Virus record (IMG/VR): IMGVR_UViG_3300042868_004707
Coordinates: 32,001 to 96,000 of that record
DNA length: 64,000 bases
Direction: 5' to 3' (one strand)
Source: a virus
The notes beneath the pieces were generated by a model that did no database searches, had not been told where the DNA came from, and saw nothing but the letters and a program-made list of their open reading frames with translations. This document shows, piece after piece, positions 3,001 through 62,965 of the stretch. Positions within the stretch are counted from its first letter, which is position 1. Each line of letters starts with the position of its first letter. A program made the position numbers and the translations under genes.

Positions 3001-6000
3001 AGCTTTAATTTTACCAAGTCTAAAATCAGCAAAGTCATCAGCAATTCTTTCCTTAATCATTCTATTTGTTACAGTAGGATCTGAATAATCATACTTCTTA
3101 CCAGATTGTCTATCTGTAAACTGTCCTTGTTGATTTCTGAATTCATTTAATATAGCTTCTCTTTCACTCTCGCTTAAGAATGAAGCCCATATTCCTTCAA
3201 ATATCTCATGATATTCTGTACCTTTTAATCCACCACGAACAAACTTAGCAACACCTTCTTCAAATACACCCCAAGCTTCTTCATTCTCATTCACTTGAAT
3301 CATTCTATCCAAAATTTGAAATGGAATACCAGAAGCATTTTTAGCATGCCAAGCTTTAAACTCTTCAAGTTCTGCATTAGTCATTCTATCAGAAACATCT
3401 GCTCCAACCATTCTGAATTCACTAGGACCATTTTTACCTCTTTTTCTTTTAGATGGGTCGTATGGAGCTTCAGCAGGTTTGCTTCCTTCTAAAGCAGCTA
3501 ACTCAGCATTATAATTAGCTTCAAGCTCTTCTGATACTTGTATCCAACCTCCTTTATATTCTTTACCTTTATAGAAACCAGTTTCATATACTTCTTTAGA
3601 AGCTGCTCTTATCTCTTCCTCTTTTCTTTTTTCTATATCAGCTTTCTTAGCTTCTATATCAGAAACTTCTTCTACAGTTGTAGTAGGAGCTTTTTCTAAA
3701 GCAGCTAACTCATCTAATAAAGCTTTTGGATTTTCTGAATAGTCAGCCTCAAAAGGAATTTCTTTTTCATCACTAAAGCCACTAGTAGGTCTTTGTTTAT
3801 AATCTACAACTAATGAATCAGTAGTTCCATCAGGATATACTATTTCAAAAACTTCACTACCTCTACCATACTGATCTCTTTGAGATTTTACAAATGTCAC
3901 CTTAGTACCATCTTCAGTAAACTTAACTGTTCCTGGAGTTACTGTACTAGAGAAACCTAAAGATCTTCCTTCTATACTTTTAAGTTTTTCTTTGATTTCA
4001 GTTTTTCTATCTTTCTGAACAGGAGAAGCTTCTGCAACTACAGGAGCTGGTTTAGAACCTTCTGCTTCTAATGTTTTACCTAGTTCACTTTCAATTCTTA
4101 ACTTAACAAACAGTTTAGCTTTTTCTTCGTTTGTAGATTCATCTAAATCTATTGTTACAATGTTTTCTGGAAGAGCACGTAAGTTACCATCAACAGCTGC
4201 AATCAATTGTGGCTCTGTGGAAAGTTTAGTAATTGTTTCATTATTTTTAACATCTACAACAATTCTATTATCAGGTGTGATTGTTCCTGTAAATAATACA
4301 GGACCTGTGTTAAATTCACCAAAAGTGTTCACCTTTTCTGAATTCAATTCATATTTACCAATAACAATTCCTCCTGACACTGTTGGTTGAGCAGGAGCTG
4401 GTTTTGGTTTAGCTGGAATTTTATCATAAGGAAGAACATTCCCATCTGTAATATATGAATACTTCTGTTTATAAGAAGCTTGTGTTTGTGTTGGAGCAGC
4501 TGTATGTGTTATTAATGGAGTTTCTTCTGTTGATCTTTTAGAACCATCAGGATTTTTTCCAGATAATAAATATGATTGATAGTTAGGCCATTGAACTTTT
4601 GTTATGTTTCCATCTTTATCAGCTCTATATTCTGTAAATGTTTTAGACGTACCTAATTTAAGAGTGGTGTTATTCGCTGTAATAAATGCATTTTGTAATA
4701 CATCCATTATCTCTTGTTTACTTTCAGAAACTTTAGACAATGGAAATGCTTTACCACCAACATTAAATGTCATGTTAATAGTATCTATTCCTATTTGACT
4801 AGGTGTCTTAGTATCTCCTTTAGATTTCCAGTAAAGAACATTCTGTAAGAAGTTAGAATACGCATAGTTAATCTTAACAGGTTTACCTGTATTAGATTGC
4901 ACAATCATCTCTTTAGATATAGCTTCAACTAAACTGAATATAGTGTTTGCTTGAGAGTTTGTTAAATTTTTATTATTCAAATAATCTAAAAGATCTCCAT
5001 ATTGAATTAATGTTGTTCCTGCAGGAAAAGATAATAACTCTCCTTTATGTTGAATCTTTCCTGTTGTAACAATTTGAATAAGTCCTTCTGTGTTAGCAAT
5101 AATGTCTTCAGCATTATCACCAAGAATAACTCCTACATTATTATTTTCTCTTACACCATTAATTTTATTCTGTCTAGGAATTCCTCTAGAGATGTCAAAT
5201 GAATATGGGGTGTATCCTTTTTGTTTGAATACATCAGCTCTGAATATTTTATATGCTTCAAGAGCTCTTTCAGCTTCTTCTTCTTGACCAGCTCTCACTT
5301 TTACATACCCACCTTCTGTAATAGGTTTAGCAGAAGTCATTGTTTCAAAGATCACCTCATCAAGTATTGTAGGATTTTCATCTCCAACCTTTGATAACTT
5401 TTCTCCTTTTTCATTAACAAAGAAATCTCCTTCAGGTGTTTGTAATATAAACACCTGTGCCATAAATCCTAATTCAACATTAGTTTGATCTGCTGTTAAA
5501 GGCTCTGTAATATTCTTTTCATAAGAAAGCTGTACAATTCCTTCTAAGCCAAGATCTTTAGCATTGTTAGGAGTGACAATAATCACTTTATACTTGTCTC
5601 TGTTGTTAAAGAATTTTAGATTGTTTAAAAACTTTCTTGCTCTAACAATATGTGGAAGTTTATTTTTAACCTCTCCAGCTGTATCTTCAGAAGGAGTAGA
5701 AGTTGATAAGTATAAAATACTAGCATCTTTTCTTTGCTCTTCAGATCCTACAATATCTCCTTCTTTAGGATTGATTGTAACCACTGTAGCAGAACCTTGT
5801 TCCAACTTCTCTTGTTGTTTATCAAGAGTTTCTTTATCCTTTGCTAATTTCTCTTCTTCTGTTTGTAACTTCTCATATCCTTTAAGTGCAGAAACATTAA
5901 TGTTTTGAATGTTACCAGCTAAGTCTTCCACCTTCACTGTACCATCTTCATTTAATCTAATAACCTTCACTGTAGTTAATTCTGAGAAATCTACATTAAG

Positions 6001-55404: not shown

Positions 55405-56730
55405 ATGAAGAAATATAGATTTAAAACAAAAGAAGAGTTTCAAGATGAAGATCGTTGGCAATCTGATTCATGGGCAGGTCCACTTCGTGGTTATCCAAGT
55501 GGTTGGGCTGATAGTGGTGAAATGAATAAATATCTAGGTCAAGAAGTTCCAGATCAATATCATAAATATATTGAACAACAAGTAAGTTTCAGAATGGACA
55601 GTTTGCATTTTGAACCAGATGATGCTATAGAAGAACCAGAAGTAAACATCGAAGAAACATTAGAACAAGTAAAACAATTAAACTCCTTAACAACAAAGAA
55701 AACAATGACAAAAACAGCAAAAACAACAGCAAAAAAGAATCCAGTAGCAGAGAAATTCGTATTCATGGACAAAACAGTTAATATTCTGAACGTAGGGTTT
55801 CAAACTCGTAAGAATGTTATTTTATATGGAGCTGGGGGCCACGGAAAATCAGAGATAACTCTTGACTTCTTAAAAGCAAAAGGTATTGAGCCTTTCATCC
55901 AAACTATGGGTACAGGTATGACTACAGACAGATTGTTTGGTGGTCTTGACATTCCTACATTCGAAACAACAGGTAAGATTGAATATCTTGTACACAATTC
56001 ATTCATGAACCATGAATATGTTATCTTCGAAGAGTTGTTTGATGCTCCTGATTTCATCTTAGAGCAATTAAAAGACATTCTATCTAGTGGTGTATTCAGA
56101 AATGGTACACAGATATTTCCTATTAACACTAAATTCATCATCTGTTGTACTAACAGAACTCGTGATGAATTCTCTAAGAACATGTCATTAAAAGCATTGA
56201 TGGAGCGTTTTCCTCTTGAGCTTAATGTTATATGGGACAACTACACAGAAATCAGCTACAACAAGTTGCTTGAAAGTAAGTTTGGTGAAGGAGAAGTGGA
56301 TCCAGTGATTCCTTATTTATTACAAGAGTATGCTAAGAATGGTATTACTATTAGTCCTCGTGTTGCTGTAACAGCTTATCAAGTGTATGATGAATGTGGA
56401 CCAGATTCTTTATCATTCATTGCAGAGTTTGCTAAAAAGCCTTCTTTAATTGCTGAAGCAATCAAGAAGTTTGAATCAACAATCAAGTTTAGAGACTTGT
56501 CTGCAGCTATTACATATAGCATCGAAACTCTAACTAGCCTACCATTGGTAAGTAGAGATGATGAAAAAATGCATAAAGATGCTATTGGTTCACTTAAGAA
56601 ACAATTAGCTGATATCAAAGGCCTAACTGTAGGTGATGATGTTGCACACGTACATGCACAGCTTGTTAAAGCAGCTACATCTGCTGTTGAGAAATTTGAG
56701 AAAAACTTAACTATTGCTTCATTTGTATAA
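55405..56730 (+). CDS. MoxR-like AAA+ ATPase (possible internal start at 55705)
   Basis: Walker A GAGGHGKS, Walker B-like VIFEEL, sensor CCTNR, ALMERF. Confidence 0.85.
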   Translation: MKKYRFKTKEEFQDEDRWQSDSWAGPLRGYPSGWADSGEMNKYLGQEVPDQYHKYIEQQVSFRMDSLHFEPDDAIEEPEVNIEETLEQVKQLNSLTTKKTMTKTAKTTAKKNPVAEKFVFMDKTVNILNVGFQTRKNVILYGAGGHGKSEITLDFLKAKGIEPFIQTMGTGMTTDRLFGGLDIPTFETTGKIEYLVHNSFMNHEYVIFEELFDAPDFILEQLKDILSSGVFRNGTQIFPINTKFIICCTNRTRDEFSKNMSLKALMERFPLELNVIWDNYTEISYNKLLESKFGEGEVDPVIPYLLQEYAKNGITISPRVAVTAYQVYDECGPDSLSFIAEFAKKPSLIAEAIKKFESTIKFRDLSAAITYSIETLTSLPLVSRDDEKMHKDAIGSLKKQLADIKGLTVGDDVAHVHAQLVKAATSAVEKFEKNLTIASFV

Positions 56731-56732
56731 TT

Positions 56733-58133
56733 ATGGCAAAAAAATTATGGGATGATGATGACGACTATTATGGTAGTTATTATGCTCCAACTTACACTCC
56801 TAAAAAGAGTAAAGGTGGTTGGAAGAGTAAGTATGGAGGTGGTGGTTGGTCTAAATCAGGCTGGTCATCATTCTCGTATACATGGGACTATGGTGGTGAT
56901 AACAACGATGATCTATTTGTTAAAGATCCAATCAACTATCTAACACCAACAGCTGCAGAGATCAGAAAGAAAGTGCATGCACCAAAGCAAACATCTATTG
57001 ATACAATCAAAGAACTAGCACGTATATGCTATTTCAAGATGATTGATGATAGAGAATACATTGCTGAGAAGTATGCTGACTATGATTCTTTATCTGAATC
57101 TGAACAAGGTGAATACCAACAGAAGAAAGCTTTGTACGATAGTATATTTGAGCAATTCATTCCTGGATTCTCACCATTAGAACAAGCTATATCTATTTAT
57201 TTGAAACTGAAAGGTCAATCAACTAGAGAAGAAAGAGATGAAGATGATCAGGAAGACAAAGAGATAGACATGACCAAAAGACTTGACTTTGATAGAGAAT
57301 TGTATTTTGATCCAACAATCAATGAACAGCTAGAACTAAATGAGCTTAGTAAAGAGAGAAAGATGGAGATTATGAATCACCTATCTCTTGTAGGTCAGTT
57401 TGGTAGTGAGTTCAAGGTTGAGAAAGAAATATCTGAGAAGATTGTAGCCAATTCTGATCAGTATTCTACTATGATTATGAGAGACTACTCTCAGATTCAT
57501 ATGATGAACCTAATGCAGAAGGTGTATCCAAACTTTAGAAGTAAGTTCTTAACTAAAGACTTAACTGTTAGTGTGCCTGTAGATAGAAAAGAGCAGATTC
57601 AGAAGATCATTATTCTTCTAGATTACTCAGGAAGTATGCATGAAGATGAGAAACAGATATGGGTAAATGCTATATTAATCGACAGATTCAGATATGTAAT
57701 GAAAGGAGAAGCAGAAGTGTTCTTCAGTTATTTTGTTGATGATTGTGATGATCTTCAGTTCCAACATATCAAGGATAGAGATGATGTTATACGCTTTTGG
57801 CAAACATTCTCTAATCATCCTAATGGTGGTGGTACAGATATTGGTGGCATAGTAGAATATGTTGCTGATCAAGTGATGAACAAACATAAGTTACATAACT
57901 TACATGTAGATCTATCAGAAGAGAAACCAGAAATCTTAATCATCAATGATGGTCAAGACTCTGTTGGTTCAGATGCATTTCCATACAAAGTGAATGCTGT
58001 ATCATTAATGGAATTTAGTGAAGAGCTAAAAGACTTGTGTCTTGCTACAGAAGGTAAACAGATTCAGGTTACGTATGATCTTGAAACATTTGCTTATTCT
58101 AAAGAAGGAGGAAAGCAACAGTTAAGAGAATAA
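56733..58133 (+). CDS. vWA (MIDAS) domain protein, partner of the AAA
   Basis: LLDYSGSM, GGGTD, LIINDGQD. Confidence 0.85.
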   Translation: MAKKLWDDDDDYYGSYYAPTYTPKKSKGGWKSKYGGGGWSKSGWSSFSYTWDYGGDNNDDLFVKDPINYLTPTAAEIRKKVHAPKQTSIDTIKELARICYFKMIDDREYIAEKYADYDSLSESEQGEYQQKKALYDSIFEQFIPGFSPLEQAISIYLKLKGQSTREERDEDDQEDKEIDMTKRLDFDRELYFDPTINEQLELNELSKERKMEIMNHLSLVGQFGSEFKVEKEISEKIVANSDQYSTMIMRDYSQIHMMNLMQKVYPNFRSKFLTKDLTVSVPVDRKEQIQKIIILLDYSGSMHEDEKQIWVNAILIDRFRYVMKGEAEVFFSYFVDDCDDLQFQHIKDRDDVIRFWQTFSNHPNGGGTDIGGIVEYVADQVMNKHKLHNLHVDLSEEKPEILIINDGQDSVGSDAFPYKVNAVSLMEFSEELKDLCLATEGKQIQVTYDLETFAYSKEGGKQQLRE

Positions 58134-58222: not shown

Positions 58223-58329
58223 AGTCAGGTGGCGGAATTGGTATCGCACTCCACTTAACTGGAAAGTATTGTTTCGACACAATTAATCAGGTGAAAGGCA
58301 CCATACAGGTTCAAATCCTGTCCTGACTA
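58223..58329 (+). ncRNA. Second tRNA-Leu-like RNA with non-canonical central domain
   Basis: Acceptor AGTCAGG/CCTGACT, D arm GCG-GAATTGGTAT-CGC, T arm ACAGG-TTCAAAT-CCTGT, A73; about 56-nt central insert. Confidence 0.75.
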
Positions 58330-58477: not shown

Positions 58478-59063
58478 AACCTACTGTAAAAATAATGGGG
58501 CTAACAGGTTTTGACAGGTTACCAGTAATTAATACAATCAGCCAGAGAGATAACTGTAAACTAAGATGAATATAATTAAATGGCAAAAACACAAACAGTG
58601 TAGTATCTCAAGGAGACAACGCACAAATCGTAGCTAACATGACTGTAGTACATAACATCTTAAATGGTGGTATTAAAGTTAAATCAAATGACATTATTGA
58701 ATTTGAATTAGCAGCCTAAATTAAAGATTTCTCTGTTAGATTAAACAGAGTGGTGGTTTCTCGATTGTTTATCAGTCGATCCTAGTTGTATGATACTCCA
58801 ACTTTAAAACCGTATCAAAAAAGCTGTATAAATTGTATTTTTGAAAATAATTTTGGACGAGGGTTTGGAAATTGGACCCATTACATAGGAATATGTAATT
58901 AAAAATTGCTTGAATTGCTGGAACGCTAAGTTACACCTGCGAGGGTAATATGCCAATCAGCAGCCAAGCTCACTGGAAGAAGTGAGAAGGTTCAGAGACT
59001 AGGGACACTACGGTGAGCCCACAGTAAGCAACATCTAGAACAGATGATGATATAGTCCGATCC

Positions 59064-59483
59064 CTACAGAAATGTAGGAAGAAAGAATAGTCTCTCGTAG
59101 GCTAACTTTCTTGTAACTTGTTTGTCTGTGTATTTACCATTACGAATGGTAACTGCATCATGGTATTTTAAGACTGTATTTATACGATGTAACTTTTTAG
59201 GATGATGAGAATCCAGAAGTCTACAAAGTTTCAAACATTCTTGATTACTATTACAAGATAAAGAATAACCAATATTATGGTTTTTTTTTCTAGAAGGTTT
59301 TTTTGACATATAAGTTTTAATACTATGTTCATCTAACAAATATTTTTGAATCTCTTCAAGAATTGTTATATAACAGTTAGTAAAATCTATTTTGATGCAT
59401 TTATAAGTATCATTTTTAGAACTTTTACTCATAGTAATTGAACCATCAGCATCAAAAAAGCCTGAAATGTATTGTAGTGTCAT
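59064..59483 (-). CDS. Single-motif LAGLIDADG homing endonuclease, antisense inside the intron
   Basis: YISGFFDADGSI, IDFTN...ILEEIQ; 139 aa. Confidence 0.88.
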   Translation of the reverse strand: MTLQYISGFFDADGSITMSKSSKNDTYKCIKIDFTNCYITILEEIQKYLLDEHSIKTYMSKKPSRKKNHNIGYSLSCNSNQECLKLCRLLDSHHPKKLHRINTVLKYHDAVTIRNGKYTDKQVTRKLAYERLFFLPTFL

Positions 59484-59506
59484 AGTGATTATGTTTTAGA
59501 TATGGT

Positions 59507-59538
59507 GTAAATCTACAACATGTCCTAGACATATGCAA
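59507..59538 (-). promoter_or_regulatory. Intron-internal antisense promoter for the LAGLIDADG gene
   Basis: TTG-N20-TAGATTTAC, 24 nt upstream of the ATG. Confidence 0.6.
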
Positions 59539-59618
59539 GTAAAGTGACAACAAGTTATTAACAAAATGCAACTCCCTCTAGCTCCACTAGTCTCGCATTG
59601 TAAGACTATTTACCATTT

Positions 59619-59653
59619 TCCCTACACATGTCTCAAGTGTGTAGGGATTTTTT
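59619..59653 (+). terminator. Rho-independent terminator after tmRNA
   Basis: TCCCTACACAT-loop-GTGTGTAGGGA-TTTTTT. Confidence 0.8.
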
Positions 59654-59683
59654 AATTTGTATTAATCCTTAATAATAAATAAA

Positions 59684-60492: not shown

Positions 60493-61188
60493 ATGAAAAA
60501 CATACACATATTACCAACACCAAAAGATTTTGAAGTTTGGAAAGATATTATTGGATATGAAGGATTATATCAAGTAAATGAGTATGGCAATGTAAAAAGC
60601 CTGTCAAGAACAATTACAAAAGGTAATATTACTTATGTAACTAAAGATAGGATTTTGAAGCAATCTGTAGATTCTGTAGGTTATCCTTATGTAAATTTAT
60701 CAGACTATAAAAAACAAAAGACATTTAGAGTACATCAATTAGTTGCTGTAGCTTTTCTAAATCATACTCCTGATAAACATAAGGGATTAGTTATAGACCA
60801 CATTGATGGGAATAAACTAAACAATATGACTACTAATCTTCAGTTGATTACTAACAAGAAAAACACAAGTAAAGATAGAAAAAACAAAACTTCTAAATAC
60901 ACAGGTGTATCTTTGCATAAACAAAGTAATAAATGGTTAGCTCAATTTAAAGAGAATGGTAGAGTTAAATACTTAGGTATTTTTAAAACTGAAGAAGAAG
61001 CAAGAGATGCTTATAATACTTCACAAGAACAAGACAAGAATAAGTATAGTGAGGAAGAAGTTTATGATATTGTACAAAAAGCAATAGAAGAAAATAGCAG
61101 TAAACAACTTCACTTCTTTGATGGAGGATATTCGAATCCTGTTTATAGTAATTTAAAAATATGGTTTGAAAAATTTAAAAAGAAATAA
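60493..61188 (+). CDS. NUMOD4-HNH-AP2 endonuclease, chimeric termini
   Basis: EVWKDIIGYEGLYQV, VHQLVA, IDHIDGNKLNN...NL, SKYTGVS...YLG.F.TEEEA. Confidence 0.88.
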   Translation: MKNIHILPTPKDFEVWKDIIGYEGLYQVNEYGNVKSLSRTITKGNITYVTKDRILKQSVDSVGYPYVNLSDYKKQKTFRVHQLVAVAFLNHTPDKHKGLVIDHIDGNKLNNMTTNLQLITNKKNTSKDRKNKTSKYTGVSLHKQSNKWLAQFKENGRVKYLGIFKTEEEARDAYNTSQEQDKNKYSEEEVYDIVQKAIEENSSKQLHFFDGGYSNPVYSNLKIWFEKFKKK

Positions 61189-62413: not shown

Positions 62414-62965
62414 ATGGAAAATTGGAAAGAAATTAAAGGTTATGAAGGAAGATATGAAGTTTCTAACAAAGGAAAAATAAGAAGTTTAAATTACAGAAAC
62501 CAAAAGGGTCTTATTAAAGAAATGACACCTTCTTTATCTAATGTAGGGTATTTGATGTTTCCCTTACCTTTTAATAAAAAACAGAAATCTGTATGTGTAC
62601 ACAGAATTGTTGCAGAAACTTTTTTAGAGTTGCCTATTGATTTTGATGTTGTTAGATATACTGTAAATCATATTGATGGAGATAAGTTAAACAATAATGT
62701 TTGTAACTTAGAATGGATGACTTATTCTGAAAATAACAAACACTCTTATCAAACTCTTGGAAAAACAAGTGGAATGAAAGGAAACAAATTTGAAAAATCA
62801 AAATTATCTAAAAAAGTTACAGCGTATAGTGATGATATGTCTTTTGTTAAAACCTATAATTCTACAACAGAAGCGTTTTCAAAAGATGGATATACTTCTT
62901 CAGGAATATCTCAAGCAGTAAAAAATAAAAATAAATATAAAAAACTAAATTGGAAATATGAATAG
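62414..62965 (+). CDS. NUMOD4-HNH homing endonuclease
   Basis: WKEIKGYEGRYEVSNKG, VHRIVA, VNHIDGDKLNN...NLEW...EN..H. Confidence 0.9.
   Translation: MENWKEIKGYEGRYEVSNKGKIRSLNYRNQKGLIKEMTPSLSNVGYLMFPLPFNKKQKSVCVHRIVAETFLELPIDFDVVRYTVNHIDGDKLNNNVCNLEWMTYSENNKHSYQTLGKTSGMKGNKFEKSKLSKKVTAYSDDMSFVKTYNSTTEAFSKDGYTSSGISQAVKNKNKYKKLNWKYE

Follow-up and report, generated by a model that had tools for sequence, protein, structure and literature searches.

The locus considered in this study belongs to a virus whose record, 115 kb long, is complete and has terminal repeats, and the question it raises is whether a frame of 45 codons serves as the template of a tmRNA tag and, if it does, what the extra residues might be for. 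I will refer to the stretch of that record that was analysed, 64,000 nt in length, as the window. An initial annotation of the window had pointed out the frame, the TAAAT in front of it, and its Clp-type ending (LAA), and had suggested that so long a tag may alter adaptor or protease targeting, or else that the RNA may have two resume sites. Comparison with related sequences makes it very probable that the locus is the tag template of an intron-split phage tmRNA, with translation beginning at the GGC codon at 58582.

Neither ARAGORN nor the Rfam tmRNA model (RF00023) finds a tmRNA in the raw window, because an intron of 703 nt interrupts the gene. When 58865 is joined to 59569, the resulting RNA of 387 nt is recognized by ARAGORN as a tmRNA. 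As read from the sequence, half of a T arm ends at 58865 and is resumed and completed at 59569, and the 5' end of the RNA (GGGGCTA, beginning at 58497) pairs by eye with TAGCTCC (59580-59586), including a G3:U70 pair. The CCA end is not encoded in exon 2. The junction is fixed by a viral contig (L024) that carries the same gene without an intron, contiguous across the junction and 95% identical over the 387 nt, so it is clear that excision of the intron restores the T-loop. The two exons listed in Table 1 are a tmRNA gene whose T-loop is split by a group I intron.

Table 1 Features of the split tmRNA gene in the window. Positions count from the first nucleotide of the window.
Feature	Positions	Strand	Basis or remarks
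tmRNA exon 1	58497-58865	+	ARAGORN on spliced sequence; intron-less twin L024
Exon 1 contents, 5' half			Acceptor strand (58497-58503), D-like region, helix 2, conserved block of the pseudoknot 1 region
Exon 1 contents, remainder			Tag frame, helix 5, 3' strand of helix 2, 5' half of T arm
Family-specific block (CAGAGAGATAACTG, 3 nt, ACTAAGATGAA)	58543-58570	+	Place of pseudoknot 1
Tag frame, 45 sense codons and TAA	58582-58719	+	Translation; comparison with relatives
Resume codon GGC (Gly), first templated residue	58582-58584	+	Alignment with hosts; Rfam resume region in L024
Core, codons 15-27, Q-I-V-A-N-M-T-V-V-H-N-I-L	58624-58662	+	42 aligned tags
Internal TAAAT-GGT, alternative site, 17-residue tag	58661-58668	+	Choice of ARAGORN; judged not to be conserved
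Post-stop hairpin, equivalent of helix 5	58731-58750	+	5 of 7 pairs change on both sides; 75% of cells paired
Group I intron, 703 nt	58866-59568	+	In T-loop, after second loop base
LAGLIDADG homing endonuclease gene	59064-59483	-	After P9; PF00961 E = 7e-7, PF14528 E = 6e-6
tmRNA exon 2	59569-59586	+	3' half of T arm, acceptor strand TAGCTCC, discriminator A
Terminator-like hairpin, 11 pairs, then T run	59619-59657	+	33 nt past the 3' end of the tmRNA

Relatives of the gene were sought in phage and in cellular genomes. By blastn against phage records, the sequence surrounding the first codons of the frame matches Flavobacterium phages of the FpV4 group and Cellulophaga phages of the phi38:1/Calle group, and the tmRNAs of the FpV4 and Calle groups both score as such with Rfam. 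Set against the curated cut-off of 47 bits, RF00023 gives 72.2 bits for L024, 58.2 for FpV4 and 86.6 for Calle_1; the range for the family is 58 to 87 bits, as compared to 110 to 181 bits in hosts of the order. A scan of IMG/VR with the 14-base block of the pseudoknot 1 region returned 119 loci, 57 of which carry a tmRNA of this type, and among these the tag frame takes 44 distinct forms. The 44 distinct relatives referred to below are flavobacterial phages and viral contigs. Among 185,579 species genomes the exact family pattern has one match. It falls on a 4.9-kb contig from a Flavobacteriales MAG, and for more than 2 kb this contig is collinear with viral ones. A BLAST search of 401 Flavobacteriales genomes with exon 1 produced nothing beyond this contig. 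Judged by its sequence, the contig is a mis-binned phage contig, and the family of long-tag tmRNAs is, over the genomes searched, a phage-borne one, found in phages of Flavobacteriia.

The structure of the RNA was assessed in an alignment of 33 full-length intron-less relatives. Over the acceptor, the T arm, two segments of helix 2 and the post-stop hairpin, 92.5% of the positions are paired, and pairing drops to 40-54% in a control in which the partners are slid. Changes on both sides of a pair are found in 21 of the 32 pairs. The acceptor (7 bp) is 93.5% paired, with the G:U at its third pair kept in 31 of the 33 relatives, and the T stem is 100% paired, with covariation in all 5 of its pairs and a loop of 7 nt. 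At the place of pseudoknot 1 there is a block, CAGAGAGATAACTG and ACTAAGATGAA separated by 3 nt, that is invariant in the alignment and is followed by a linker of 11 nt ending in TTAAAT. By eye, this region offers an invariant CAG/CTG stem (3-4 bp) only, the fourth pair of which covaries in some relatives (A-T, G-C or C-G); the second stem of a canonical two-stem pseudoknot 1 was not found.

Translation of 58573-58719 gives a stop, L, N and then 45 codons, from GGC at 58582 to GCC at 58716, closed by TAA at 58717-58719, exactly as originally read. The GGC is base 86 of the RNA, with TTAAAT directly before it and a TAA in the same frame two codons earlier. The tag closes with the residues ELAA, so that the Clp-type end is also as described, conforming to the hydrophobic-Ala-Ala pattern that ClpX would be expected to recognize. 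The description of the tag as about four times the typical length agrees with the 29 Flavobacteriales host tmRNAs considered here, whose tags are 8-10 residues long, and with the range of 8-35 residues over all species given in a 2021 review (PMC8012679). One of the Flavobacteriales genomes (G085) yields two full-length tmRNA matches that exceed the cut-off, C35:6204-6597 (151 bits) and C31:11439-11841 (139 bits), the former with the shortest tag seen, 8 residues.

An open frame in a single sequence proves little, since about 2% of shuffles of the tag's 135 bases remain open through composition alone. The frame is made significant by the relatives, because they keep it open. In each of the 44 distinct relatives the reading runs uninterrupted from the upstream site as far as the stop (24-49 codons), the differences in length among them always keep the frame, and the upstream stops or frameshifts that would have spoken against the frame are found in none of them. 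Frames +1 and +2 contain stops in every one of the 44, the means being 4.5 and 3.0, respectively. The entropy of alignment columns is 0.86, 0.80 and 1.19 at the first, second and third codon positions. Parsimony changes, counted on a tree made from the flanks alone, number 219, 180 and 301, an excess at third positions that is moderate overall, and 31% of the codon changes are silent, from which it follows that leader and tail, the parts of the tag on either side of the core described below, evolve fast. At seven near-invariant residues the changes number 2, 4 and 48. These residues were picked for the invariance of their amino acids, so the informative point is that their third positions are free, which speaks against a constraint on the RNA sequence itself. 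Nor is there significant unusual folding within the 156-nt mRNA-like (tag) region (z = -1.2). An alignment of related phage tmRNAs had been proposed at the outset as a check, and it thus shows variation at the invariant residues that is almost entirely in third positions. On this comparison, the reading of a 45-residue tag appears well supported, and the frame would be translated by trans-translation.

The tags of the family range from 24 to 49 residues (mode 35), with 30 codons in phi38:1, which makes them three to five times as long as those of the hosts. They are built of modules: a leader of 2-15 residues, a core of 13, a tail of 8-24, and a terminal hydrophobic-Ala-Ala. The leader mostly begins G-K/N-N, as do host tags, and the terminal Ala-Ala is retained in 43 of the 44 relatives. 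The core, of invariant length, has the consensus Q-[IV]-x-A-N-M-x-x-V-[FHY]-[SN]-[LI]-[LI], in which Q, M and V are invariant over 42 aligned tags and A and N nearly so. The window and its twin L024 have the only tags that pair a 14-residue leader with a core of the VVHNIL type and an 18-residue tail. Elsewhere, a leader of 14 residues goes with tails of 8-10, and a tail of 18 residues with leaders of 3-7. The window's tag is therefore near the top of the range because a long leader is combined with a long tail.

AlphaFold2, given the alignment of tags, predicts one helix, at residues 14-29 (pLDDT about 79, with a mean of 66 over the whole), and with medium confidence the core may be considered helical. 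The possibility that this helix is amphipathic was tried and set aside: its hydrophobic moment is 0.80, as compared to 0.75 in shuffles, and 42% of the shuffles are as high. A profile of the tag finds no match among PDB sequences up to E = 10 and nothing in Pfam below E = 0.05. Against 1.84 billion protein representatives it finds 73 matches, all but one of them mini-ORFs, 28-94 residues long and terminating with the stop of the tag, which gene callers opened within such tmRNAs. The ten matches that were looked up all come from metagenomes. Since 72 of the 73 matches are of this kind, the peptide occurs only in the frames of such tmRNAs.

If the gene functions as its parts suggest, the intron would splice itself out to leave an RNA of roughly 387 nt, which would be charged with alanine and would rely on the SmpB of the host, since the phage encodes none (PF01668 is absent from the complete 115-kb genome). 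The charged RNA would enter stalled ribosomes, translation would resume at the GGC and proceed through 45 codons to TAA, and the unfinished protein would gain alanine and 45 residues. The tag of the family may be regarded as a host-type tag (about 9 residues) expanded to 24-49, still with the C-terminal hydrophobic-Ala-Ala of the kind that is read by ClpXP in other bacteria. The core might dock a host factor (an adaptor or a non-default protease) regardless of its position in the tag, and the phage would thereby both free ribosomes and steer the fate of tagged proteins. The suggestion that the long tag alters adaptor or protease targeting is thus a plausible one, which the conserved core fits, and phages with long tags probably do change what happens to unfinished proteins. 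More specifically, I propose, tentatively and at somewhat less than even odds, that the core is a portable signal that re-routes the products of ribosome rescue to a non-default host adaptor or protease, or that blocks it. If that is true, then trans-translation is a tool under phage control and not plain housekeeping. Tags are treated as short degrons in reviews, and a family of 24-49 residues, confined to phages and with a constant core, implies a second signal. The core is moreover a defined peptide, directly usable to fish for its partner.

The partner is more likely to be encoded by the host than by the phage, as far as may be judged from the phage sequences. No neighbouring gene is conserved over the 57 loci, the best cluster, without a Pfam match, being present in 20 of them, and no protein is common to the window phage, FpV4 and Calle_1 at a blastp threshold of 1e-4, which could miss a small, fast-evolving phage partner. 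The tag itself, compared to the proteins of those three phages, gives short matches at the level of chance only.

It is also conceivable, though unlikely, that the additional residues work in cis on the ribosome, or are a passive spacer, and do not form a docking motif; they might, for example, fill the exit tunnel so that all of the truncated protein has emerged before its release, or slow termination. About 45 residues span the exit tunnel of the ribosome, and the tag is of about that length; leader and tail are poorly conserved; and no partner of the core came to light among neighbours, shared proteins, PDB or Pfam. A spacer, however, has no need of an invariant Q..ANM..V core kept through synonymous change, and some tags of the family have only 24-30 residues. 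A signal acting within the ribosome at termination would be expected to hold a fixed register with the peptidyl transferase center, but the core lies anywhere from 2 to 15 residues from the start of the tag and from 8 to 24 residues from its C-terminus. This variability fits a portable recognition motif better than a fixed-register signal.

A second alternative, quite improbable, concerns where translation resumes. The second in-frame TAAAT-GGT, which had been predicted to give a tag of 17 residues, does exist (Table 1), and resumption might take place there (58666), either exclusively or in addition, so that the upstream part would be a conserved spacer in the RNA or a second start. The resume-consensus scan of ARAGORN, applied to the spliced RNA, selects this internal site, the six bases before its codon are identical to those before the upstream codon, and the same heptamer is retained in 7 relatives. 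Position argues otherwise. The internal site is at base 170, as compared to resume codons at bases 86-90 in the family and 96-100 in hosts, and the distance from the block to the upstream codon is 9-12 nt in all 57 loci. When the phage RNA is aligned with host Flavobacteriales tmRNAs, the host TTTAAAT-GGC-GAA-AAC lines up with the phage TTAAAT-GGC-AAA-AAC, and in L024 the resume region of the Rfam model falls on the upstream codon with high posterior probability. The part of the frame upstream of the internal site never has a stop, and it shows the pattern expected of codons, with 157, 120 and 212 parsimony changes at the three positions (chi-square p = 2e-6).

The internal motif is itself poorly kept. 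Of the 16 relatives with the same residues around the site, 7 have TAAAT-GG, and the 28 others all lack it. It is missing in 37 of the 44, and relatives without it encode the same Leu-Asn by other codons, such as CTT AAT or TTG AAC. TTA and AAT would be the expected codons for Leu-Asn in an AT-rich genome, and the motif is best explained as a mere consequence of the residues L-N-G. The idea of two resume sites therefore finds no support in the relatives, and the upstream GGC, rather than the 17-residue alternative, is supported by their sequences as the resume site.

That the locus is a decaying or inhibitory copy of a tmRNA with its frame unused, like the gene of mycobacteriophage DS6A that consists of the tRNA-like domain only, is hardly credible: the gene is interrupted by an endonuclease-bearing intron, its pseudoknots 2-4 are reduced, and phages are known to carry tmRNA derivatives that do no more than titrate SmpB (PMC4131195), but the defining tRNA-like features are all intact and covarying, the intron keeps its full catalytic core at 95 bits, and every relative keeps the frame while varying synonymously.

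The reading of a working tmRNA with a long tag may be placed beside systems already described. The host tmRNAs of Flavobacteriales, with tags of the GENNYALAA type, resemble the phage form in the Ala-type acceptor with G3:U70, the T arm, helix 2, the TTAAAT-GGC context, the first residues (G-x-N), the hydrophobic-Ala-Ala end and the post-stop hairpin. They differ in that their tags have 8-10 residues, as against 45 here, and lack the 13-residue core, while in the phage form the region of pseudoknots 2-4 is shorter and the Rfam score much lower. The long tag of mycoplasmas provides a functional analogy, since it too is of unusual length and its extra residues carry determinants of recognition. 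Gur and Sauer are said to have found in 2008 that this 27-residue tag is directed to Lon, and the mycoplasmas that have it have lost ClpXP. It stands as a precedent for a tag whose length goes with a change of protease. By eye, it bears no resemblance in sequence to the phage tag. The mycoplasma tmRNA is a cellular one, whereas that of the window would be a second, phage-supplied tmRNA, with a tag that is longer and that keeps the Ala-Ala end. The mycoplasma tag has been termed unusually long and is described as read by Lon (PMC8403727).

Phage tmRNAs are not new (PMC4131195, PMC9004378). Those of the mycobacteriophage Bxz1 group, Bacillus phage G and the Melnitz-like phages are similarly carried by phages without an SmpB of their own, often beside tRNA genes, but no expanded, core-bearing tag is reported for them in these two papers, and the Melnitz type is permuted and in two pieces, unlike the tmRNA of the window. 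A search of the literature found no paper on long core-bearing tags in flavobacterial phages. The paper on Calle counts one tmRNA and says nothing further on it (PMC8776804), and the tmRNA goes unmentioned in the transcriptome paper on phi38:1 (PMC5335546). Several relatives have a long-tag tmRNA adjoining large arrays of tRNA genes (more than 20 in the viral contig L017, about 9 in L083), and Calle_1 has in addition an RtcB ligase and GroEL/Cpn10, which suggests a gene set for the maintenance of translation.

The intron of the window matches RF00028 at 58855-59079 with 95.3 bits (cut-off 50) and has a full catalytic core. As read from the sequence, U precedes the 5' splice site and is paired, at position -1, with a G in P1, and G is the last base of the intron. 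Its LAGLIDADG gene runs antisense to the intron and reaches with its 3' end into the P9 hairpin. The usual orientation of a homing endonuclease gene within a group I intron is sense. Group I introns in the T-loop of tmRNA genes are known (PMC11915505), and those described share with the present one the U before the 5' splice site and the terminal G. Insertion after the second base of the loop corresponds to position 3 of that paper, where it is reported from the class Bacteroidia only, and placement of a LAGLIDADG gene after P9 is one of two reported. The described forms come from bacterial and archaeal genomes, with no discussion of long tags, whereas the gene of the window is carried by a phage and its endonuclease gene is antisense. 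A second intron-bearing member of the family is found on contig L087, where a group I intron (3998-4221, minus strand, 94.8 bits) lies at the 3' end of a tmRNA (about 4230-4523) with a tag of 37 residues. The intron has therefore spread, or been kept, inside the family. Among sequencing runs, metagenomes of lakes and of freshwater contain the stretch considered here or its relatives. Members of the family also occur in three assemblies of RNA libraries, in one of them with the intron in place, and none contains the spliced joint; contigs from such libraries are not distinguishable from DNA carry-over.

Current annotation tends to hide genes of this kind. ARAGORN shortens long tags, to 17 residues in the window and 22 in Calle_1, and where an intron is present it misses the tmRNA gene entirely. 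In GenBank, neither the records of the FpV4 group nor those of the Cellulophaga phages phi38:1 and phi40:1 have a tmRNA feature at the homologous place, and those of phi38:1 and phi40:1 list two hypothetical proteins there. In FpV4 itself (KT876724.1, about 82.2 kb), ARAGORN fails and Rfam gives 58 bits.

Several other features surround the gene in the window. A tRNA-shaped RNA (58223-58329, plus strand; Rfam tRNA 46.3 bits) precedes the tmRNA by 170 nt. It has about 36 nt inserted behind its anticodon arm and is not called by ARAGORN. Within 3.5 kb downstream are two free-standing HNH/NUMOD4 homing-endonuclease-like genes on the plus strand, one at 60493-61188, with Pfam matches to NUMOD4, HNH_3 and AP2, and the other at 62414-62965, with an N-terminus similar to it by eye. 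Further upstream, a gene for a MoxR-type AAA+ ATPase (55405-56730, plus strand; PF20030, PF07728) is followed by one (56733-58133, plus strand) for a protein of 466 residues without a Pfam match. This protein contains D-x-S-G-S, a motif characteristic of von Willebrand A domains, and its homologues are found near the tmRNA in 12 of the 57 loci.
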